Positions 1-8,610 of a DNA stretch of 8,610 bases are shown here, piece after piece. The stretch covers positions 1-8,610 of IMG/VR virus record IMGVR_UViG_2778261030_000017; one strand, 5' to 3'. A program made the translations under genes and the position numbers. Position 1 is the first letter of the stretch; every line of letters starts with the position of its first letter. The stretch comes from a virus (Duplodnaviria > Heunggongvirae > Uroviricota > Caudoviricetes). The notes beneath the pieces were generated by a model. The model saw only the letters and a program-made list of their open reading frames with translations, was not told the DNA's origin and searched no databases.

Positions 1-137
1 ACCTGGCGCTGCGCAGGGCGAAAAGTGATGTTCAGAAGTGGGAGCGAGTCTGCGCCGCGCTGCGGGAGCTGAACAAGCACCGGGATATTGTTCGACAGAT
101 TACTGATTCTTCCCGCCGTGTTGTATCGGAAAAGTGA
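1..137 (+). CDS. 3' end of an upstream gene (partial, hypothetical phage protein)
   Basis: Open frame entering from the window edge (codons phased from position 3) ending at TGA 135-137, translating ...LALRRAKSDVQKWERVCAALRELNKHRDIVRQITDSSRRVVSEK. Backbone-like GC content. The stop sits 15 nt before the next start. No family recognised. Confidence 0.4.
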   Translation, partial: LALRRAKSDVQKWERVCAALRELNKHRDIVRQITDSSRRVVSEK

Positions 138-152
138 TTGCCGGAGGCGCTT

Positions 153-566
153 ATGGCAAAAGTATTTACACAGGAAGAGCGGGAAAAAATTAAAGGGCAG
201 GTTGTTGAGCTAGTACGCCGGAGTGGGCGCGAGACGTTACGGCAACTGGAAGCCAAGACAGGTGCGACAAGATATCTGATGAGCGTTCTTGCCAGAGAGC
301 TGGTTGCCAGTGGCGATGTATACAACTCTGGTTACGGGTTATTCCCATCTGAACAGGCTCGTAAGGACTGGCAAAACGCCCGCAAAAAACTATCGAGGGC
401 AAAACTGAAGAAACCGGTTGTGGTTGATCCTGACCTTATCTGGTCATTACCAGACGGAGAAATACGCCGCTATGACAGGCAATTGAACATAATTTGTAGT
501 GAGTGCCGTAACAGTGAAGTGATGCAGCGAGTTTTGATATTTTACACAGGAGTAATGATGGAATAG
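153..566 (+). CDS. hypothetical phage protein (about 137 aa)
   Basis: ORF-track frame 138..566; I place the start at ATG 153 because GGAGG at 143-147 sits 5 nt upstream (138 is TTG). Translation MAKVFTQEEREKIKGQVVELVRRSGRETLRQLEAKTGATRY... No family recognised with confidence. Confidence 0.55.
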   Translation: MAKVFTQEEREKIKGQVVELVRRSGRETLRQLEAKTGATRYLMSVLARELVASGDVYNSGYGLFPSEQARKDWQNARKKLSRAKLKKPVVVDPDLIWSLPDGEIRRYDRQLNIICSECRNSEVMQRVLIFYTGVMME

Positions 567-797
567 TGAAAATAACATGAAACCTTTGGATTCTGGTGTT
601 TCAGTGGATGGGAAAAGAGCAGATACATAGAAAATGAATAGCAATAATTCACAGTCTGGATGTTGTTTGTATGCTTATAAAATGATCCTAGTATGCATTG
701 CCGGAGTTGAATCAGCTCCAATGAAGAAACTGAGAGGAGTATTTAGAAGATAGCTAAATGGATGTAATTATTAGTATCTAAAAAATAGTATTTTTGA

Positions 798-863
798 AAT
801 GGGTCTAAGAACACAACAATGTACAAATGAGAAGTTATCTTTTAATATGTTCAAAGACCCATT
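798..863. repeat. long imperfect inverted repeat in the intergenic region downstream of the esterase gene
   Basis: AATGGGTCT (798-806) is the reverse complement of AGACCCATT (855-863). A second 5-bp segment pairs as well (809-813 with 848-852), giving a roughly 14-bp interrupted stem around a 34-nt loop. No T-run follows on either strand. Confidence 0.3.
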
Positions 864-917
864 AGGATTGATATCAGTTATGTTAGCTAGATTGATAAAG
901 TGATTACATATTTTCTG

Positions 918-1691
918 TTATATGCTGAAATGAATAATGCTATTCCAGAGTGCAGCAGAGAAAGTCTCCTGATGATTGAGCTCTGGAAATTGTACAATAG
1001 AAAAATTACTGTATTTTTCTGTCAAAATATTTCTCAAAACAGATTCCGCTTTGATGGCTTCAGGATATAAAGATGCGGAGTAATCAAGGCTAAGATTTCC
1101 GTTAAGCAAGCATATACTTTTAGTGTGCTTTGATTCTGATATATCATCTTTAATTATCTTGATGATTCTTTCATTCTGCCATAGAAGTGATGGTGCAGAT
1201 ATATAATAATAGTTAAAGCATGAATTATTTTTTAAGCAATCAAGCACAAAAATAGCACCTAGCGAGTGCCCCCATATACCGATTCTGGAACTGTTCGGAG
1301 CAATAGTACTAACCCATGGCATGATCTGAGTTAGTAATAATTCTCGGAAAGACTGGCTTCCTCCACCAGTAAAGTAGATCCATGCTGGTTTAGAGTTATC
1401 AACAATAGCATTTTCACCATCAGGAGTATAATCGTAAGCACGGCGATGAATGCTAAGGTTATTCCAAGATTCATAACCAAGTGTAACTAACACTGGTGGA
1501 TTGGGTAGTGCATCAATAACAGGCAGAATATCAGAAATGTAATTGTTGGCACTATTCCCATCAAGTATATAAAGAGTTGCATTATTTTTTTTAATGTTTT
1601 TTGGAGTAAAAATACATATTTTATATTTGGTGTCATGGTTAATTGAGTTAAATATGCGTGTTTGACAATGAATGTCCATATGTTTAGTCAT
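918..1691 (-). CDS. alpha/beta-hydrolase fold esterase (putative esterase family, serine hydrolase), 257 aa
   Basis: Minus-strand ORF with a GxSxG nucleophile motif (IGIWGHSLGAIF), an upstream YILDGN segment and a C-terminal His (FPELNHQ), consistent with a Ser-Asp-His triad. GGAG lies 5 nt upstream of the ATG on the minus strand (complement of 1697-1700). Very AT-rich relative to flanking DNA. No signal peptide evident. Confidence 0.75.
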   Translation of the reverse strand: MTKHMDIHCQTRIFNSINHDTKYKICIFTPKNIKKNNATLYILDGNSANNYISDILPVIDALPNPPVLVTLGYESWNNLSIHRRAYDYTPDGENAIVDNSKPAWIYFTGGGSQSFRELLLTQIMPWVSTIAPNSSRIGIWGHSLGAIFVLDCLKNNSCFNYYYISAPSLLWQNERIIKIIKDDISESKHTKSICLLNGNLSLDYSASLYPEAIKAESVLRNILTEKYSNFSIVQFPELNHQETFSAALWNSIIHFSI

Positions 1692-1854
1692 GCGTTCTCC
1701 CCATGAGCATTAAAGGATGCTTAAGATATGCTATGTCACTGATAAAAAATTTGTTGTGTGTGTTTAGTTATTTTATCTACCTCCATTATGATTTAAGACT
1801 GATATATGTTATCAGCAAAGGTACATCGTTATTATTTTACCTGTCAATACATTT

Positions 1855-1873
1855 GATATTGATTATCGTTTAC
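1855..1873. promoter_or_regulatory. Fur-box-like sequence in the esterase upstream region
   Basis: GATATTGATTATCGTTTAC matches the 19-bp Fur consensus GATAATGATAATCATTATC at 14 of 19 positions by my hand alignment. It lies about 165 bp upstream of the esterase start on the minus strand. The background is AT-rich, so a chance match is plausible. Confidence 0.2.
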
Positions 1874-2169
1874 ATCGCTTGCTTAGGAAATTGAAGGCAG
1901 GTAACTATCATGTCAATGAACTAACCCACAGTCTAACGTACTTCTTTCCCCAATCACCAACAACCAAATTCCTGTTATCACCACTGGGATTTTGGCGCAA
2001 CTTCATGGTGCAGAGGTAAATAGCATCAAGCAAAATCTCTTTTTCCGTTGTTGTCCTTATGGGACGTCTGTCTTTCTGACCGATTTCATATTGGCGAGGT
2101 AATGGGAAGTTAAGTAGAATAGCTGCGGGTGCTTGAGGCTATCTGCCTCGGGCATGAACACCAACGGCA

Positions 2170-2250
2170 GATAGAGAAAAGCCCCAGTTAACATTACGCG
2201 TCCTGCAAGACGCTTAACATTAATCTGAGGCTCAATCCATGCTGAACACA
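2170..2250 (-). ncRNA. sok: predicted Sok-type antisense RNA region of the hok/mok locus (boundaries approximate)
   Basis: By analogy with hok/sok loci, the antisense RNA is made from the opposite strand across the mok start (ATG 2239). A candidate minus-strand promoter is TTGCCT, 17-nt spacer, TAACCT (complement of about 2254-2282). A minus-strand hairpin GCGTC-N6-GACGC lies further downstream. Exact ends are not determinable from sequence. Confidence 0.3.
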
Positions 2251-2451
2251 TGTAGGTTAGCCTCTTACGTGCCGAAAGGCAAGGAGAAGCAGGCTATGAA
2301 GCAGCAAAAGGCGATGTTAATCGCCCTGATCGTCATCTGTTTAACCGTCATAGTGACGGCACTGGTAACGAGGAAAGACCTCTGCGAGGTGCGAATCCGA
2401 ACCGGTCAGACGGAGGTCGCTGTCTTCGTAGACTACGAATCTGAGAAGTAA
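2239..2451 (+). CDS. mok: Mok (modulator of killing) reading frame, in-frame N-terminal extension of Hok
   Basis: ATG 2239 opens MLNTCRLASYVPKGKEKQA, which runs in frame into the Hok start. The MLNTCR beginning matches my recollection of MokC-type proteins. Confidence 0.55.
   Translation: MLNTCRLASYVPKGKEKQAMKQQKAMLIALIVICLTVIVTALVTRKDLCEVRIRTGQTEVAVFVDYESEK
2296..2451 (+). CDS. hok: Hok/Gef family type I toxin (51 aa membrane peptide), HokD/RelF-like
   Basis: Hand translation gives MKQQKAMLIALIVICLTVIVTALVTRKDLCEVRIRTGQTEVAVFVDYESEK: one transmembrane helix plus the conserved Hok C-terminal motif. A G-rich interrupted hairpin follows at about 2458-2485, as at hok mRNA 3' ends. Confidence 0.9.
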   Translation: MKQQKAMLIALIVICLTVIVTALVTRKDLCEVRIRTGQTEVAVFVDYESEK

Positions 2452-2570
2452 GAGACCAGGCGGGGGAGTAATCTCCCGCCACCTCTGATGTGTCAGGCAT
2501 CCTCAACGCACCCGCGCTTTACCATACTGAAAATGCTGTTTGAATGTTCATCTCTGAAAGAGGACTATGA

Positions 2571-2915
2571 ATGAAAAAGGTATTGATTGCAGCACTTATT
2601 TCCGGTGTGTCTTTTGGCGCTTTTGCACAGCAGGGTGGTTTCCAGGGGCCAGAAGCAGAGCGTTCAACAGTAGCGCAGGCAAAAGAACTGAAGGATGATG
2701 CATGGGTTATCCTTGAAGGGAGCATCGTTAAAAAAGTGGGTGATGAACGTTATGAGTTTCGTGACAATAGCGGGACAATTGTCACGGATATTGATGACAG
2801 CGTATGGGCCGGGCAGAATGTTTCTCCGAAAGACAAAGTAAGAATTGAGGGTGAAATTGATAAAGACCTGAGCAGTGTTGAAGTTGATGTAAAGGCACTG
2901 AAATTATTAAAGTAA
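2571..2915 (+). CDS. secreted OB-fold protein, YgiW/YdeI (BOF, DUF388) family, 114 aa
   Basis: N-terminal signal peptide MKKVLIAALISGVSFGAFA followed by QQGGFQGP. The mature part follows the YgiW-type pattern (KDDAWVILEGSIVKKVGDERYEFRDNSGTIVTDIDDSVW...KDKVRIEGEIDKD). RBS AGAGGA lies 6 nt upstream of the ATG. Confidence 0.85.
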   Translation: MKKVLIAALISGVSFGAFAQQGGFQGPEAERSTVAQAKELKDDAWVILEGSIVKKVGDERYEFRDNSGTIVTDIDDSVWAGQNVSPKDKVRIEGEIDKDLSSVEVDVKALKLLK

Positions 2916-2933
2916 CCGCCCCTGCTTGTTAAG

Positions 2934-2960
2934 CCCGTCTTACTGACGGGTTTTCTGTTT
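2934..2960 (+). terminator. rho-independent terminator after the YgiW-like gene
   Basis: CCCGTC (2934-2939), loop TTACT, GACGGG (2945-2950), then TTTTCTGTTT. Confidence 0.6.
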
Positions 2961-2987
2961 GTACATTCCGGCGTATTGCCTTACAAT
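2959..2987 (+). promoter_or_regulatory. candidate sigma70 promoter for the operon running from the 3037 ORF through DUF968, rusA and Q
   Basis: TTGTAC (2959-2964), 17-nt spacer, TACAAT (2982-2987), about 50 nt upstream of ATG 3037. Found by eye only. Confidence 0.3.
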
Positions 2988-3036
2988 TCGCGCAGTCAGC
3001 CTGAACAACTGACACCTGCTGTCACCGGAGAATCCG

Positions 3037-3309
3037 ATGACACAACACATAAAATCCCACAATTCTGAAGCCGACCCGGAAATTAAGCAGGGGAGGCGTT
3101 TTCGTGCGCCTCAGTATGGCTGGTTTCACTATCTGTTCTGTACGATCGATGAGGCAGATATGCTTCAAGAGGCGTATCTGCGTCGCGGTGTCCGTGTGGA
3201 GCGGAGTCTGAACGCTGATCGTCTGACCTGGACCGTTTCTGTATATCTTCCTGTTCGTGCACATCTGCCACGGACACATGCCTGCTACCGTCAGCGCGTC
3301 TGGAGGTAA
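3037..3309 (+). CDS. hypothetical protein (90 aa), translationally coupled to the DUF968 gene
   Basis: GGAG at 3027-3030 sits 6 nt before ATG 3037. The stop TAA 3307-3309 is followed by the GTG start of the next gene at 3311. Family not recognised. Confidence 0.5.
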   Translation: MTQHIKSHNSEADPEIKQGRRFRAPQYGWFHYLFCTIDEADMLQEAYLRRGVRVERSLNADRLTWTVSVYLPVRAHLPRTHACYRQRVWR

Positions 3310-3310
3310 T

Positions 3311-4360
3311 GTGCGGGTATTACTTCGACCTGTTCTGGTTCCGGAACTCGGGCTGGTGGTCCTTAAGCCCGGTCGTGAATCATTGCCAGTTTTTCATCGC
3401 GGCAGGGTGCTGGTGGAGCCGGAACCGAAAAACATGCGGGCGCTGCCATCTGGAGCGGTTCCTACTGTTCGCCAGCCGCTGGCGGAAGATAAATCACTGC
3501 TGCCATTTTTCAGCGATGAGCGGGTGATTCGTGCAGCTGGCGGCGCTGGTGCACTGTCTGACTGGTTATTACGTCACGTGAAATCCTGCCAGTGGCCACA
3601 CGGCGATTATCATCACAGCGAAACCGTTATTCACAGTTACGGTGCTGGCGCAATGGTGTTGTGCTGGCACTGCGACAACCAGCTGCGCGACCAGACCTCC
3701 GAATCACTTGAGCAACTTACTCAACAAAATCTGACAGCCTGGATGATTGACGTCATACGCCATGTAATGAATGGCACGCAGGAGCGGGAATTATCGCTGG
3801 CTGAATTATCCTGGTGGGCGGTCCGCAATCAGGTGGCGGACGCGCTACCGGAAGCGGTATTACGTCGTTCGCTGGGGTTGCGTGCGGAAAAAATCCGCTC
3901 AATGTACCGTGAAAGCGACATCATACCGGGAGAACAGACCGCCACCAGCATACTGAAGCAGCGCACAAAAAATATTGCGCTACCGCCTCACACCCACCAG
4001 CAACAGAACCCACCACAGGAAAAGACGGTGGTCAGCATTGCCGTTGATCCGGAGTCTCCGGAATCCTTCATGAAACGACCTAAACGTCGCCGCTGGGTAA
4101 ATGAGAAATACACACGCTGGGTAAAGACACAGCCGTGTGCGTGTTGTGGTAAGCCAGCGGACGATCCTCATCATCTGATTGGTCATGGTCAGGGTGGAAT
4201 GGGAACAAAATCCCACGATATTTTCACGCTACCGCTGTGTCGGGAGCATCACAACGAGCTTCATGCGGATCCGCTGGCGTTCGAAGAAAAGCATGGTTCC
4301 CAGGTTGATTTAATTTTTCGTTTTCTTGATCACGCCTTTGCAACCGGCGTGCTCGGGTAA
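3311..4360 (+). CDS. DUF968 family phage protein (YdfU-like) with a C-terminal Cys/His HNH-like zinc motif, 349 aa
   Basis: Start reassigned to GTG 3311 (RBS GGAGG 3302-3306, 4-nt spacing), giving (M)RVLLRPVLVPELGLVVLKPGRE... and a 349-aa product that fits my recollection of YdfU-like proteins. C-terminal motif CACCGKPADDPHHLIGHG...CREHHNELH. The ORF-track start at 3257 has no RBS. Confidence 0.85.
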   Translation: MRVLLRPVLVPELGLVVLKPGRESLPVFHRGRVLVEPEPKNMRALPSGAVPTVRQPLAEDKSLLPFFSDERVIRAAGGAGALSDWLLRHVKSCQWPHGDYHHSETVIHSYGAGAMVLCWHCDNQLRDQTSESLEQLTQQNLTAWMIDVIRHVMNGTQERELSLAELSWWAVRNQVADALPEAVLRRSLGLRAEKIRSMYRESDIIPGEQTATSILKQRTKNIALPPHTHQQQNPPQEKTVVSIAVDPESPESFMKRPKRRRWVNEKYTRWVKTQPCACCGKPADDPHHLIGHGQGGMGTKSHDIFTLPLCREHHNELHADPLAFEEKHGSQVDLIFRFLDHAFATGVLG

Positions 4361-4372
4361 AAGAGGTTACTG

Positions 4373-4744
4373 ATGCGTATAGAGTTTGTTTTGCTTTACC
4401 CGCCGACGGTGAACACCTACTGGCGACGTCGTGGCAGCACATATTTTGTATCAAAAGCCGGTGAGCGTTATCGCCGGGCTGTGGCGCTTATTGTTCGCCA
4501 GCAGCGGCTGAAATTAAGCCTGTCCGGAAGGCTGGCGATAAAGGTGATTGCAGAGCCACCGGATAAGCGCCGCCGTGACCTGGACAACATTCTGAAAGCA
4601 CCGCTGGATGCGCTGACGCATGCGGAAGTGCTCATTGATGACGAGCAGTTTGATGAAATCAATATTGTGCGCGGTCAGCCTGTGCCAGGTGGACGGCTGG
4701 GCGTGAAGATTTACGAAATCAGAGGTGGTAACGATGGCGCGTGA
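4373..4744 (+). CDS. rusA: RusA family Holliday-junction resolvase
   Basis: 123 aa with the RusA signature [39 protein letters not shown] lies 6 nt upstream of the ATG. Position between the DUF968 gene and Q is the usual nin-region place. Confidence 0.9.
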
Positions 4745-5105
4745 TATCCAGATGGTTCTTGAGCGATGGGGGGCATGGGCAGCAAATAATCATGAAGATG
4801 TAACATGGCCCTCGATAGCTGCTGGTTTTAAAGGATTAATCCCGACTAAAGTGAAATCACGTCCTAAGTGTTCTGATGATGACGCCATGATAATTTGTGG
4901 TTGTATGGCACGATTAAACAAGAATAATCAGTATTTGCACGATTTGTTGGTGGATTATTACGTAGGTGGAATGACATTTATGGCTCTTGCACGTAAGCAT
5001 AGATGTTCTGATGGGCTTATTGGTAAAAGGCTTTATAAAGCGGAAGGTATTATTGAAGGAATGCTTATGGCTCTGAATGTCCGGTTAGATATGGATATGC
5101 GGTAG
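4734..5105 (+). CDS. late-gene antiterminator Q (phage antitermination protein Q family, QuuD-like)
   Basis: [25 protein letters not shown]...[11 protein letters not shown]...[27 protein letters not shown] matches my recollection of QuuD/82-type Q proteins. Start ATG 4734 follows GAGGTGG and overlaps the rusA stop by 11 nt. The ORF-track start at 4725 is a GTG inside that RBS. Confidence 0.85.
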
Positions 5106-5196
5106 GGATATATAGTGATGAGGGTTATGTTTTCTGTGTTTATAATTAACATGTTTATTTTTTGATGGTCATGTATTGTGGAAGGTAGATAAAATG

Positions 5197-5225
5197 TTGC
5201 CTGGTGAATTGAAAATATTGATAAT
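5197..5225 (+). promoter_or_regulatory. candidate sigma70 promoter for the CPBP gene
   Basis: TTGCCT (5197-5202), 17-nt spacer, GATAAT (5220-5225), about 30 nt upstream of ATG 5257. A separate perfect TATAAT at 5141-5146 may belong to the phage late promoter, but I cannot assign it. Confidence 0.3.
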
Positions 5226-5256
5226 CAATCTTCATCATTAAATAAAAGGAGTGCTT

Positions 5257-6075
5257 ATGTGGATTGTGTTAGTACTGTCACTGTCAACTCTCAGTTGGCA
5301 TAAGGTAGTGGCTTTTTCATTGTTGACGGTGTCTGTTGTCCTGGCTGTGCTTAATGATATTATTGATTGGTCGGTGTTATTTTTTGTTGCTACAATCGTT
5401 TTTTTTATTATTTTGAAGTTCAACTGGAAATATAACGCCTGGGCTAAATCTATATATGAAGTTGGCATAGTTTTATCAGCCATAGCATTATCTTTCCATC
5501 TATGGCCAGGGTTTCACAATCCTGTAGTGCTAAATTCTGTTACTGTTGGCCCTCAAAGTACTCCCTATACAATGTATTTTAATTTTGATAAAGCGCTGGT
5601 GCCATTTTTGTTAGTCCTGTGTACATCTTCTTTGTTTAAAAAAGAAGTAAAATCAGAAGTGTCTTTGTGGAAGTGGGGGGCTCTGTCGCTCTCTGTTCCT
5701 CTTATCCTGTTTTTGGCTGTTTTTTTTGGTGGATTAAAGCCAGAGATTCATTTTCCTGAGTGGTTGCCAGAGTTTATATTGGCTAATTTGTTTTTTGTGT
5801 CTCTGGCAGAGGAATCATTATTTAGAGGGTATATTCAATCACGGCTATCAGAAGTAACGTCTCCATTGGTTGCATTAATTGTGGCGGCTTTGTTGTTTGG
5901 TTTTTATCACTATTCAGGTGGTGCTTTACTTGTATTATTTGCCACGTTATCTGGTGTTGTGTATGGATTGTCATGGATGTGGAGTGGGCGTTTGTGGGTT
6001 GCCACCCTTTTCCATTTTGGTTTGAATCTGTGTCACTTGTTATTCTTTACCTATCCATTTTTAAAACATAATTGA
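5257..6075 (+). CDS. CPBP family intramembrane metalloprotease (CAAX protease / Abi domain), polytopic membrane protein, 272 aa
   Basis: All three CPBP motifs are present in order: EExxxR (AEESLFRGY), FxxxH (FGFYHYS), HxxxN (HFGLNLCH). Multiple hydrophobic helices. Start placed at ATG 5257 because AAGGAG 5246-5251 sits 5 nt upstream (the ORF-track GTG at 5251 lies inside the RBS). Strongly AT-rich compared with the Q gene immediately upstream. Confidence 0.85.
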   Translation: MWIVLVLSLSTLSWHKVVAFSLLTVSVVLAVLNDIIDWSVLFFVATIVFFIILKFNWKYNAWAKSIYEVGIVLSAIALSFHLWPGFHNPVVLNSVTVGPQSTPYTMYFNFDKALVPFLLVLCTSSLFKKEVKSEVSLWKWGALSLSVPLILFLAVFFGGLKPEIHFPEWLPEFILANLFFVSLAEESLFRGYIQSRLSEVTSPLVALIVAALLFGFYHYSGGALLVLFATLSGVVYGLSWMWSGRLWVATLFHFGLNLCHLLFFTYPFLKHN

Positions 6076-6216
6076 TTTTTTCTATGGTTTTAAATTTATA
6101 AGACTGAAAAATAGCAGGACGTGACATTTGCATGAAAAATATGCACGGCAAAGCATTTACGTACGTAAAAAATCAGGTATGCTGTTAAGAGTGGTTATTT
6201 CGCCGCATAGCTTGAC

Positions 6217-6240
6217 CCCGCCTCTGAGCGGGTTTTTTGT
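6217..6240 (+). terminator. rho-independent terminator downstream of the CPBP gene
   Basis: CCCGC (6217-6221), loop CTCTGA, GCGGG (6228-6232), then TTTTTTGT. Confidence 0.6.
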
Positions 6241-6361
6241 GCCCGCAAAGTAGCGCAGTGCGTTAAATGTGCTGGTAGTTATTAATACAGGTCTTTCAGC
6301 TTGCTGGCTTTTTCGACAAGAGTTATTGGTGTGTCACGTTAACCGGAAAGGGTAAAAAGAC

Positions 6362-6601
6362 ATGCTGAAACAGCAGGATATGACAGAAACCGCCAGAGTT
6401 GTGTTTGATGAATTAAGCGTCACCGAACCGGCGACGGTCGGGGAGATTGCGCAGAATACGTACCTTTCACGCGAGCGCTGCCAGTTAATACTGACCCAGC
6501 TGGTTATGCGGGTCTGGCAGACTATCAGTTCGGTTGTTACAGACGCCTTCAGTCCTGAAGGCTTTTTTATTTGTGGTAAATGGGCGGCTGGTGGGTGTTA
6601 G
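6362..6601 (+). CDS. questionable small ORF (79 aa, possible small HTH protein); may instead be non-coding late-leader RNA
   Basis: The ORF has backbone-like GC and a segment that could be a helix-turn-helix (TVGEIAQNTYLSRERCQLILTQL). Its last 57 nt contain a strong intrinsic terminator (6545-6570) upstream of the stop, and the RBS is weak. Coding status doubtful. Confidence 0.3.
   Translation: MLKQQDMTETARVVFDELSVTEPATVGEIAQNTYLSRERCQLILTQLVMRVWQTISSVVTDAFSPEGFFICGKWAAGGC
6545..6570 (+). terminator. strong rho-independent terminator (candidate tR'-like late-leader terminator)
   Basis: GCCTTCA (6545-6551), loop GTCC, TGAAGGC (6556-6562), then TTTTTTATTT. Perfect 7-bp stem. Confidence 0.6.
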
Positions 6602-6629
6602 CGGCACCTGTCAGTCCTTTGCTTATGTG

Positions 6630-6660
6630 TTGATGATAATTTACCTTTTGGGGCTATAAT
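6630..6660 (+). promoter_or_regulatory. candidate promoter for the AraC-family gene
   Basis: TTGATG (6630-6635), 19-nt spacer (longer than optimal), perfect TATAAT (6655-6660), about 35 nt upstream of ATG 6696. Confidence 0.3.
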
Positions 6661-6695
6661 TGAACTAACCAATTGCTAATGAAAGTAAAATTATA

Positions 6696-7409
6696 ATGGT
6701 TGTTGTCTGTTCAGTTATCATGGTTTGCTCCCCAATTAATATTTTTCTTGAAAAGGATACGTTGTCACTTAAGCCCGGCTCAGTCGTTCTGGCCACCAAA
6801 TGCATCAGGGCGCTTTTCCTTATGCATTATGGCAAAGTTAAAATTTTCGATATAAACCATTCCATAGTAAGTCAATATCTGGAAATTCAGCATAAGCTGA
6901 CAAGAACTCATCTGACTGACGTTCCGCTTTATCTGTCACTGGAACCCAACAACCCTGCGTTGGCTGAGGCTTTAATTACCAGCCAGAGATTTTCCGGAGA
7001 TACCACGGATATGTTTCTTATGATGGCATGCCTGTCGCTGTTTGAATCAGATGAACGGATATTATTATTTTTAAGTGGATGTTTATCCAGTATAAGTGCC
7101 AAAGTCAGGGCGATAATTCAGACAGATATATCAGCAAGCTGGACGCTTGGTGCGATTGCGTTACGCCTGCATATGAGTGAGAGTTTGTTAAAGATAAAAC
7201 TGAAAAATGAAGGGCACATGTTCAGTCGCTTGTTGCTGGAAGAGCGGATGCGTGTTGCTGTCAATATGTTATGTTCCCGGCATGGATATGGACAGGCTGT
7301 AGCAGAAAAATGCGGTTATTCAAGCTGGTCCTACTTTATTTCTGTATTTCACCGCTATTATGGCTTCCCGCCAGACAGATATGTATCCAGGCAAGGGCTT
7401 GATTATTGA
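6696..7409 (+). CDS. AraC/XylS family transcriptional regulator, small GadX/YdeO/AppY-like type (resembles prophage-encoded PatE/Psr-type regulators)
   Basis: 237 aa. The C-terminal about 100 aa show the AraC double-HTH pattern (WTLGAIALRLHMSESLLKIKLKNEGHMFSRLLLEERMRVAVNMLCSRHGYGQAVAEKCGYSSWSYFISVFHRYYGFPPDRY). The N-terminus MVVVCSVIMVC resembles AppY-type proteins as I recall them. AT-rich island; weak RBS, start could alternatively be ATG 6720. Confidence 0.85.
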   Translation: MVVVCSVIMVCSPINIFLEKDTLSLKPGSVVLATKCIRALFLMHYGKVKIFDINHSIVSQYLEIQHKLTRTHLTDVPLYLSLEPNNPALAEALITSQRFSGDTTDMFLMMACLSLFESDERILLFLSGCLSSISAKVRAIIQTDISASWTLGAIALRLHMSESLLKIKLKNEGHMFSRLLLEERMRVAVNMLCSRHGYGQAVAEKCGYSSWSYFISVFHRYYGFPPDRYVSRQGLDY

Positions 7410-7437
7410 TTTTCATCTGATTATTATTTTTTGACCC

Positions 7438-7513
7438 GGCCCTTTAGCTCAGTGGTGAGAGCGAGCGACTCATAATCGCCAGGTCGCTGGTTCAAATCCA
7501 GCAAGGGCCACCA
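7438..7513 (+). tRNA. ileZ: tRNA with CAT anticodon, Ile2 (lysidine-type, ileX/ileZ-like) rather than Met
   Basis: 76-nt cloverleaf folded by hand: acceptor GGCCCTT/AAGGGCC, D-arm GCTC-AGTGGTGA-GAGC, anticodon loop CTCATAA, T-arm GCTGG-TTCAAAT-CCAGC, discriminator A, encoded CCA. Closely resembles E. coli ileX as I recall it. Confidence 0.85.
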
Positions 7514-7520
7514 TCACATA

Positions 7521-7597
7521 CCGCCATTAGCTCATCAGGAAAGAGCGCCAGCTTTCGAAGCTGGTTGCGCGGAGTTCGGGTCCCCGAAGGCGGTCCA
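7521..7597 (+). tRNA. argN: tRNA-Arg (anticodon TCG), divergent and possibly a weak or pseudo-tRNA
   Basis: 77-nt fold with anticodon stem CCAGC/GCTGG and loop TTTCGAA (anticodon TCG), and a canonical D-arm. The acceptor stem has one A-A mismatch, the T-stem one A-C mismatch, and the T-loop is TTCGGGT instead of TTCRANT. Gene symbol assigned by position in the Stx-phage trio only. Confidence 0.55.
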
Positions 7598-7610
7598 TTA
7601 TCTGTATCCT

Positions 7611-7687
7611 GCGTTGTTAGCTCAGCCGGACAGAGCAATTGCCTTCTAAGCAATCGGTCACTGGTTCGAATCCAGTACAACGCGCCA
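7611..7687 (+). tRNA. argO: tRNA-Arg (anticodon TCT, reads AGA)
   Basis: 77-nt cloverleaf: acceptor GCGTTGT/ACAACGC, D-arm GCTC-AGCCGGACA-GAGC, anticodon stem ATTGC/GCAAT with loop CTTCTAA, T-arm ACTGG-TTCGAAT-CCAGT, discriminator G, CCA. Confidence 0.85.
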
Positions 7688-7701
7688 CACTTATTTTCCC
7701 T

Positions 7702-7727
7702 GGCTCGCTTTTGCGGGCCTTTTTTTT
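7702..7727 (+). terminator. rho-independent terminator directly after the tRNA cluster
   Basis: GGCTCGC (7702-7708), loop TTTT, GCGGGCC (7713-7719; one U-G wobble), then T8 (7720-7727). Confidence 0.6.
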
Positions 7728-7923
7728 AAATGTCTCACAATTCAGGCGGTTGACTGTTGTCTGGTTTGCGGGGAGTTTGTTAAAAGAAACTGGCATGGTG
7801 AATCCCCCTGTGCGGAGGGGCAATCAGCGAGTAGGTATATGGGATAATCGCGGATTCAGGTGCTGGTACTGAATTCACCGGGAGGCACCCGGCACCATGC
7901 AATGGCACATAGCGCCACTCTCC

Positions 7924-7950
7924 AGCCCCTCTCCGGAGGGGCTTTCTTAT
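7924..7950 (+). terminator. terminator-like hairpin (+ strand)
   Basis: AGCCCCTC (7924-7931), loop TCCG, GAGGGGCT (7936-7943), perfect 8-bp stem, followed by TTCTTAT. Confidence 0.45.
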
Positions 7951-7954
7951 GGAC

Positions 7955-7983
7955 AAAAAAAGCCCGCGCAGGGAGACGCGGGC
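7955..7983 (-). terminator. terminator-like hairpin oriented for the minus strand
   Basis: GCCCGCG (7962-7968), loop CAGGGAGA, CGCGGGC (7977-7983), preceded on the + strand by A7 (7955-7961), which is a T7 run after the hairpin on the minus strand. No convincing minus-strand gene upstream of it in this window. Confidence 0.35.
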
Positions 7984-8051
7984 GGCAAGGAATAAACAAC
8001 AAAACGTGAAGTAATATTTCAGCTGGCGAATAATATCCGACAGTAATCACT

Positions 8052-8074
8052 CTGCGCAATAGCGCGGCCTTTTT
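8052..8074 (+). terminator. terminator-like hairpin upstream of the NanS-p-like gene
   Basis: CTGCGC (8052-8057), loop AATA, GCGCGG (8062-8067; one U-G wobble), then CC and TTTTT (8070-8074). Confidence 0.35.
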
Positions 8075-8176
8075 CGTATTGCGGGCTGTTGTCTCTCTTC
8101 TGCCATTGTCCTGTAACTTCCGGACTTCAGCCCGCTCCTCATTTTACTCACAATATTATCCCGGCCGGGAGGATTC

Positions 8177-8610
8177 ATGGCATTTAAACACTATGATGTT
8201 GTCAGGGCGGCGTCGCCGTCAGACCTTGCGGAAAAGCTGACACACAAACTGAAAGAGGGCTGGCAGCCATACGGCGGACCGGTTGCCATTACGCCGTACA
8301 CACTGATGCAGGCGGTGGCTATTGAAGGAGATCCACAGGTCGGCCCTTCATCTAAGCCGGACTGGTTCTACGTGGTTGTGCTTGCCGGACAGTCCAACGG
8401 CATGGCCTACGGTGAAGGGCTTCCGTTACCGGATTCTTACGATGCTCCGGATCCGCGCATTAAACAGCTGGCGCGCCGCAGCACGGTAACTCCGGGTGGA
8501 GAGAGTTGTACGTATAACGACATCATTCCGGCTGACCACTGCCTGCATGATGTGCAGGATATGAGTACGCTGAATCATCCGAAGGCAGACCTGAGCAAAG
8601 GGCAGTACGG
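8177..8610 (+). CDS. nanS-p: 5' part of a NanS-p-like 9-O-acetyl sialate esterase (DUF1737 N-domain followed by an SGNH/SASA hydrolase domain); continues beyond the window
   Basis: RBS GGGAGG (8167-8172) 4 nt before ATG 8177. Hand translation MAFKHYDVVRAASPSDLAEKLTHKLKEGWQPYGGPVAITPYTLMQAVAIEG..., then FYVVVLAGQSNGMAYGEG carrying the SGNH-type GQSN catalytic-serine block. This matches my memory of the gene found just downstream of stx in Stx phages. Confidence 0.8.
   Translation, partial: MAFKHYDVVRAASPSDLAEKLTHKLKEGWQPYGGPVAITPYTLMQAVAIEGDPQVGPSSKPDWFYVVVLAGQSNGMAYGEGLPLPDSYDAPDPRIKQLARRSTVTPGGESCTYNDIIPADHCLHDVQDMSTLNHPKADLSKGQY

Follow-up and report, generated by a model that had tools for sequence, protein, structure and literature searches.

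What does a lone gene do in a prophage when it lies in DNA of foreign composition and is read against the operon around it? The question is raised by an 8,610-nucleotide stretch of a Caudoviricetes genome (IMG/VR record IMGVR_UViG_2778261030_000017, positions 1 to 8,610; hereafter the window), in which an AT-rich block carries a single antisense gene for a 257-residue protein. A first-pass annotation, made from the letters of the window, had recognized a serine α/β-hydrolase and left it between a siderophore or lipid esterase and a defence or counter-defence enzyme. We find that the gene forms a single-gene module that is swapped for other cargo among related prophages. Its product has no leader, keeps an intact Ser/His pair together with an upstream Asp and Arg, is predicted to adopt the fold of the IroE siderophore esterases and, judging from two alleles, is under purifying selection. 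The reading that we favor, with some reserve, is that of a cargo esterase that is located in the cytoplasm, is transcribed from its own promoter and hydrolyzes catecholate trilactone siderophores. What the prophage brings its host is probably an additional enzyme for cleaving siderophores in the cytoplasm, not a defence gene.

Gene, fold and family

The G+C content of the block is 0.334 over positions 567-1900, versus 0.498 in 1-566 and 0.501 in 1901-5100, and the block does interrupt the phage region as the first-pass annotation had proposed. The esterase gene occupies 918-1691 on the minus strand and is not extendable, because an in-frame stop lies six codons upstream of its ATG. A Shine-Dalgarno sequence, GGGGAG, is found 5 nt before the start codon (1697-1702, minus strand) and is the same in a divergent allele. 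The GHSLG nucleophile elbow corresponds to G141-H142-S143-L144-G145 and the C-terminal His to H240, so every element of the earlier description (one antisense gene of 257 codons, its own ribosome-binding site, elbow and histidine) is in place. The surrounding plus-strand genes encode DUF977, hokD, a YgiW/BOF OB-fold protein, DUF968, RusA and the Q antiterminator. The block sits between genes of the replication module (DUF1627 and DUF977) and hokD/DUF968/RusA/Q, and its setting is the nin-equivalent region of a lambdoid prophage, where it had already been placed. This region of the window is 99.6-100% identical to prophages of enterohaemorrhagic Escherichia coli (EHEC) type (O157:H7, O26, O103 and O145). 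In O157:H7 Sakai the gene is ECs1077, a "hypothetical protein" of the lambda-like prophage Sp4, which is integrated beside yccA; RefSeq labels the product, WP_000160654.1, "alpha/beta hydrolase".

Sequence and structure comparisons converge on one family. A phmmer search of the PDB aligns the protein with IroE (2GZR) over its full length (residues 8-253, E = 5e-26), followed by the bacillibactin esterase BES of Bacillus (9e-13), PfeE of Pseudomonas (1.5e-11) and then fungal siderophore esterases. Single-sequence AlphaFold2 gave an unusable model, with a predicted local distance difference test (pLDDT) score of 47, and was superseded by a model built from a 65-sequence family alignment (pLDDT 90.7, predicted template modeling score 0.91). 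This second model is a single-domain α/β-hydrolase fold without a lid domain. Searched against the PDB with Foldseek, its top 30 matches are all siderophore esterases, headed by IroE (E = 3e-19, template modeling (TM) score 0.78-0.80). After these, E values step from 1e-14 to 1e-10, and feruloyl esterases, esterase D and Fes appear (about 1e-10 to 1e-9). Thus the earlier assignment to the serine α/β-hydrolases holds, with phmmer, the model and Foldseek all giving siderophore esterases. NCBIfam has no match to the protein, and PHROGs offers only an unannotated family (phrog_8493).

The residues expected of such an enzyme are present. D44, R84, D87, G110 and G141 are invariant across the 65 family sequences, and H142, S143 and H240 are kept in 63-64 of them. 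The conserved Asp and Arg of the LDGN and RxYDYTP motifs are D44 and R84, and the GGG motif is retained. The catalytic dyad of IroE is Ser189/His287 (PMC10515146), and since the step from Ser to His fits this published pair, S143 and H240 are its counterparts. S143 would act as the nucleophile and H240 as the general base, with D44 and R84 predicted to line the active site. The full spacing of D44, R84, S143 and H240 (40/59/97) agrees with D90, R130, S189 and H287, which we take to be the IroE positions. A catalytic role for the Asp and Arg of the IroE family was reportedly described by Larsen and colleagues in 2006. Taken from the sequence and a confident model, the assignment to the IroE/PfeE/BES family of siderophore esterases is very probably correct. 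Two relatives lie in iron-siderophore loci. One (P0020) has EntE/EntB/EntA-type genes, two TonB-dependent receptors and a FecCD importer as neighbors; the other (P0100), itself leaderless, adjoins a FecCD/ABC/binding-protein importer.

An exchangeable slot between DUF977 and hokD

On the left, the module is bounded by the DUF977 gene (138-566, plus strand; Pfam PF06163, E = 4e-27), a backbone flank that is kept in prophages with other cargo. On the right lies the hok/sok type I toxin-antitoxin module with hokD (2072-2451, plus strand; Pfam HOK_GEF, E = 1e-22), which includes an Rfam sok match of 113.5 bits at 2127-2301. The two flanks were joined and run against E. coli genomes, and further fills were collected from a spread sample of related prophages. 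The esterase gene is present in 471 of 5,426 complete E. coli genomes, in a single copy each, with 458 copies at ≥99% identity and 13 at 90-95%. In 635 genomes a shorter, plus-strand fill annotated as QueH takes its place between DUF977 and hokD. Other fills at the same junction comprise a SIR2-family gene (plus IS481), an Sll1717-family P-loop ATPase, the DUF7167 and DUF5677 sets, a DUF551/DUF4014 set and an ORF6N-domain gene, and toxin-antitoxin genes also occupy the slot in other prophages. The first-pass annotation had treated the insert as cargo and not as conserved backbone, and the survey bears this out. All alternative cargoes inspected are on the plus strand; the esterase is the sole antisense one seen. 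We note that several of these cargoes, such as the SIR2 and P-loop ATPase genes, look like defence genes.

Comparison of individual prophages places the borders of the module. Relative to a QueH-type prophage (L002), homology ends at window position 544 and picks up again at 2072; across the other prophages compared, it restarts on the right at 2051-2079. The divergent esterase allele, 90.7% identical at the nucleotide level, comes from a prophage of a pig isolate (L009) that has a different replication module. Because its homology to the window is unbroken from DUF977 to 1944, the esterase module proper, at about 33% G+C, is 545-1943. Of the earlier delimitation, then, the block itself survives, and its limits of 567 and 1900 shift outward.

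The stretch between module and right flank has a history of its own. Positions 1944-2036 (plus strand) encode a remnant of an ORF6N-domain protein, residues 10-40 only, which tblastn aligns with an intact ORF6N protein of another prophage (L012; 65% identity over 31 residues, E = 8e-11), and RefSeq annotates a truncated pseudogene here. On this alignment, 1944-2036 is the scar of an earlier cargo. Since an intact ORF6N gene fills the slot in other prophages and a remnant persists in the window, serial replacement of cargo is indicated. A search for flanking direct or inverted repeats as borders of a mobile element returned only short, chance-level matches. Without such transposition-type repeats, the cargo has more likely been exchanged by homologous or illegitimate recombination in the flanks. 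At the DUF977-hok junction, lambdoid prophages have a hotspot of cargo exchange, and the esterase block is best explained as a single-gene, moron-type module in a recombinationally swappable slot of Sp4-like prophages.

The island DNA is absent from all records of a 50,697-genome phage collection. Four tblastn matches in that collection were rejected as ordinary iroE-type genes, with about 29% identity and located on large or unannotated records.

A divergent, leaderless protein and its upstream region

How far the protein stands from its relatives was assessed by an exhaustive HMMER scan of 1.84 billion cluster representatives (about 15 billion proteins). Above E = 1e-30 it returns nothing but fragments of this E. 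coli protein. The next matches are 31-33% identical, the named ones being from Pantoea, and the best identity outside E. coli does not exceed 33%. The exhaustive scan was required to reveal this wider family, because a word-indexed homology search gave only the E. coli copies plus one distant match. Identity between IroE and the Pantoea proteins is 40-53%, but it drops to 29-32% when either is compared with the prophage esterase. The clade of the latter has a branch length of 0.41, and its nearest-neighbor distance ranks 65th of 66. The closest relatives, from Pantoea and Duffyella, likewise stand alone, outside siderophore loci. One such relative, on the Duffyella plasmid pEM01 (L007, 8043-10360), is 32% identical and has a signal peptide; its neighbors are a major facilitator superfamily transporter and a ter (tellurite-resistance-like) cluster.

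The N-terminus is a further point of divergence. A hydrophobic N-terminal segment is found in 46 of 62 distant relatives, with a median N-terminal extension of 41 residues, and in genuine IroE an N-terminal signal/anchor precedes a conserved PDxxPLGPxIADxGS segment. About 46 N-terminal residues of IroE have no counterpart in the prophage esterase. Its maximum 12-mer hydropathy is 0.0, with no signal or anchor, and no remnant of a signal peptide is found upstream of the gene in any frame. Lacking a signal peptide, the enzyme would remain cytoplasmic in the lysogen, a location that we regard as probable.

The two alleles show how the gene has been maintained. The ratio of nonsynonymous to synonymous substitution rates (dN/dS) is 0.165 at dS = 0.31, and identity at codon positions 1, 2 and 3 is 93.0, 96.1 and 82.9%. 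None of the 26 substitutions between the alleles falls on a catalytic residue, and about 467 of the 471 genomes have an uninterrupted reading frame.

Conservation extends upstream of the coding sequence. The 5′ untranslated region is 88% and the promoter region 90% identical between the alleles, versus 82.9% at third codon positions; the 190 nt upstream of the gene are more conserved than synonymous sites. By comparison, identity falls to 74% in the 3′ non-coding stretch 567-797. Given this conserved upstream region and the antisense reading, expression in the lysogen is to be expected, and transcription would proceed from the gene's own region, antisense to the early-right operon, possibly under the control of Fur and iron. 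A consensus scan predicts a σ70 promoter, ATAACA-16-CATAAT, at 1785-1812 (minus strand). Its putative −35 element is overlapped by a palindrome, CTGATAACATATATCAG (1799-1815, minus strand), that is perfectly conserved in the approximately 90%-identical allele. This palindrome (CTGATATATGTTATCAG) could serve as the operator for some regulator or belong to an extended Fur site. Farther upstream, a predicted Fur-box-like 19-mer, GTAAACGATAATCAATATC (1855-1873, minus strand), matches GATAATGATAATCATTATC at 15 of 19 positions. When the dinucleotides of the 384-nt upstream region were shuffled 300 times, this score was reached only twice; the divergent allele keeps 14 of the 19. Downstream, an inverted repeat about 55 nt after the stop codon (798-863, minus strand) is predicted to fold into a stem-loop followed by a U-rich tract. 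We consider it a candidate terminator (fold z = −3.0, with 1 of 200 shuffles as stable), and it is poorly conserved in the pig-strain prophage (74%, gapped).

Substrate and biological meaning

IroE, of the iroBCDEN cluster (2GZR/2GZS), is the best sequence and structural match of the prophage esterase, and the two share a lid-less single domain, the Ser-His dyad, the upstream Asp and Arg and their spacing. Yet the prophage protein is not an IroE orthologue. Identity is about 29%, the leader is missing, and the gene lies outside an iro cluster, in 33% G+C DNA flanked by DUF977 and hok/sok. IroE is periplasmic and produces the linear trimer from the apo-siderophore, whereas Fes is cytoplasmic and prefers the ferric siderophore (PMC7403778). 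PfeE of P. aeruginosa (6GI0-6GI5) has the same fold (Foldseek E = 1.6e-18) and itself acts on a catecholate trilactone, ferric enterobactin; unlike the prophage protein it is periplasmic and belongs to a pfeA-pfeE uptake locus, and the two are about 22% identical. The nearest functional analogy for a leaderless member may be offered by BesA/BES, the bacillibactin esterase of Bacillus (2QM0; Foldseek E = 3e-18), and by fungal EstB, which are cytoplasmic members of the same family that free iron from imported ferric trilactone siderophores. These are only about 20% identical to the prophage protein, are chromosomal and not phage-borne, and are tied to their own siderophore systems. Fes and IroD resemble it in predicted compartment and in likely role, the intracellular hydrolysis of trilactones. 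Fes, however, carries a lid domain at its N-terminus and has a Ser-His-Glu triad (PMC10515146). The prophage esterase, having no lid domain, is not of the Fes/IroD type; the Foldseek match to Fes reaches E of about 2e-9 with a target TM of about 0.46 and covers under half of Fes. Taken together, a cytoplasmic enzyme of this family would most likely hydrolyze the ester bonds of catecholate trilactone (enterobactin-type) siderophores, and its function may be closer to that of Fes and BesA than to that of periplasmic IroE. For the siderophore substrate as such, we put the balance slightly on the affirmative side.

A number of observations weigh against this assignment or against the regulation attached to it, and several of them favor a different substrate. 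Identity to characterized esterases is only 21-29%, and the long isolated branch means that the substrate may have shifted. Along with the leader, the protein has lost the PDxxPLGPxIADxGS segment of the mature N-terminus. No siderophore transporter or biosynthesis partner is found near the gene in the prophage, and the Pantoea and Duffyella relatives are orphans too. The Pfam "Esterase" model PF00756 scores 17 bits, under its gathering cut-off of 22, a shortfall that we attribute to poor sensitivity on a divergent member, because the relatives P0020 and P0100 carry this domain. All of these features would suit an IroE fold neofunctionalized for cytoplasmic hydrolysis of a non-siderophore ester, be it another depsipeptide or lactone, an acylated metabolite or a lipid. 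We nevertheless consider such a shift unlikely, given that all characterized neighbors in sequence and structure are siderophore esterases, that other esterase classes match at least four orders of magnitude more weakly, that D44, R84, D87 and the GGG motif are retained, and that P0020 and P0100 reside among iron-siderophore genes. Further points on the same unfavorable side are that the hosts already possess Fes, that literature searches (including guessed EDL933 tags) gave nothing relevant on ECs1077, and that the gene is split by IS1203 (IS3 family) in O26:H11 11368, RM8426 and 2012C-4606, so that it is dispensable in those O26 lineages. As to regulation, the promoter scan found no more sites than in shuffled sequence, and the Fur-like site precedes the predicted −35 element by about 45 nt, which is an atypical position for repression. 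For these two reasons regulation by Fur or from this promoter is put forward as a hypothesis only, and on sequence matches Fur control seems doubtful.

The same insertions also bear on whether the gene is simply decaying. A 5′-truncated iroE-like passenger that lost its export signal on capture and has no selected function would account for the missing 46 residues, the IS1203 copies and the lack of a phenotype in the literature, and AT-rich DNA of this kind would likely be silenced. But the low dN/dS, the catalytic residues all kept in the divergent allele, the nearly universal reading frame, the better conservation of the Shine-Dalgarno sequence, 5′ untranslated region and promoter region than of synonymous sites, and a model that folds confidently as a complete domain leave this explanation a slim chance. 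Slimmer still is that of an anti-phage defence or counter-defence effector. Such a role is hinted at only by the moron layout of the gene and by the SIR2, Sll1717 P-loop ATPase and toxin-antitoxin genes that occupy the slot elsewhere, whereas the commonest alternative cargo, QueH, is metabolic. PADLOC-DB v2 holds no defence family that matches the protein at E ≤ 0.1, in line with the earlier statement that no established family was recognized. The homology to siderophore esterases is clear and full-length, and the gene has no partner sensor or effector genes. Furthermore, no viral protein in BFVD has the specific fold; the best is a generic α/β hydrolase (E = 1.5e-8, TM 0.56). Of the functions left open at the outset, the evidence favors the siderophore esterase, as a member of the IroE family, and lends no support to the defence options. 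Immunity to siderophore-microcins was also contemplated and rejected by reasoning: these toxins act at the inner membrane or in the periplasm, beyond the reach of a cytoplasmic enzyme.

In layout, the esterase module resembles the morons of lambdoid phages, such as bor and lom of lambda and PsrA of Sp4, which are single-gene inserts of foreign composition amid backbone genes, vary from one related phage to another and do not depend on the phage operon for their transcription. It differs in that its autonomous expression is only predicted. Besides PsrA, the window contains a further candidate of this kind. Directly downstream of the Q antiterminator is a second AT-rich block (5106-6250, G+C 0.37) with a coding sequence at 5251-6075 (plus strand; ECs1085) for a CPBP/CAAX (Rce1-like) intramembrane protease, which resembles another moron-type cargo and is frameshifted in the pig-strain prophage. 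PsrA itself (ecs1087; 6696-7409, plus strand) is an AraC/YdeO-like regulator, known as a prophage regulator that acts on gadE and on type III secretion. A 2026 paper reports that the phage small RNA HnrS governs it by relieving H-NS/Hha silencing (PMC13502914). The tRNA trio ileZ(CAT)/argN/argO follows and then a strong Rfam match to the small RNA STnc100 (138 bits, 7764-7954), the whole spanning 7438-7954 (plus strand); this is the late-region layout of Stx phages, without stx. The first tRNA is called Met by ARAGORN versus Ile by RefSeq. Nearer to the slot, the gene for the YgiW/YdeI-family stress-tolerance OB-fold (BOF) protein (2571-2915, plus strand) is intact here; in the otherwise 99.7% identical prophage of O26 RM10386 it is annotated as frameshifted.

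We know of no siderophore esterase previously described as prophage cargo, and literature searches for one found none. To our knowledge EHEC strains are without an iro cluster. We tentatively propose ECs1077 as the first siderophore esterase encoded by a prophage. With Sp4-type prophages EHEC would gain an IroE-like activity that is cytoplasmic and under Fur control and that alters the handling of catecholate siderophores by the host; this full form of the proposal is rather less likely than not to hold in every part. What is known is the IroE-like enzyme family, and what is new is a divergent, uncharacterized esterase in an unusual prophage location and probably in a different compartment. 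The DUF977-hok hotspot should also be useful for mining prophage accessory genes. If the proposal is true, the enzyme could free iron from xenosiderophores that are poor substrates of Fes, or else linearize apo-enterobactin before export, yielding the trimer of 2,3-dihydroxybenzoylserine, (DHBS)3. IroE and Fes produce this trimer in Salmonella, where it gives protection from peroxide by way of MacAB (PMC7403778). A gene that in a heavily studied pathogen genome still reads "hypothetical" or "alpha/beta hydrolase" now has a specific, testable hypothesis in iron metabolism. The assignment ties the prophage to iron acquisition in EHEC lineages, and iron and oxidative-stress physiology would, if it is true, be a phage-conferred trait of the O157, O26, O103 and O145 lineages.

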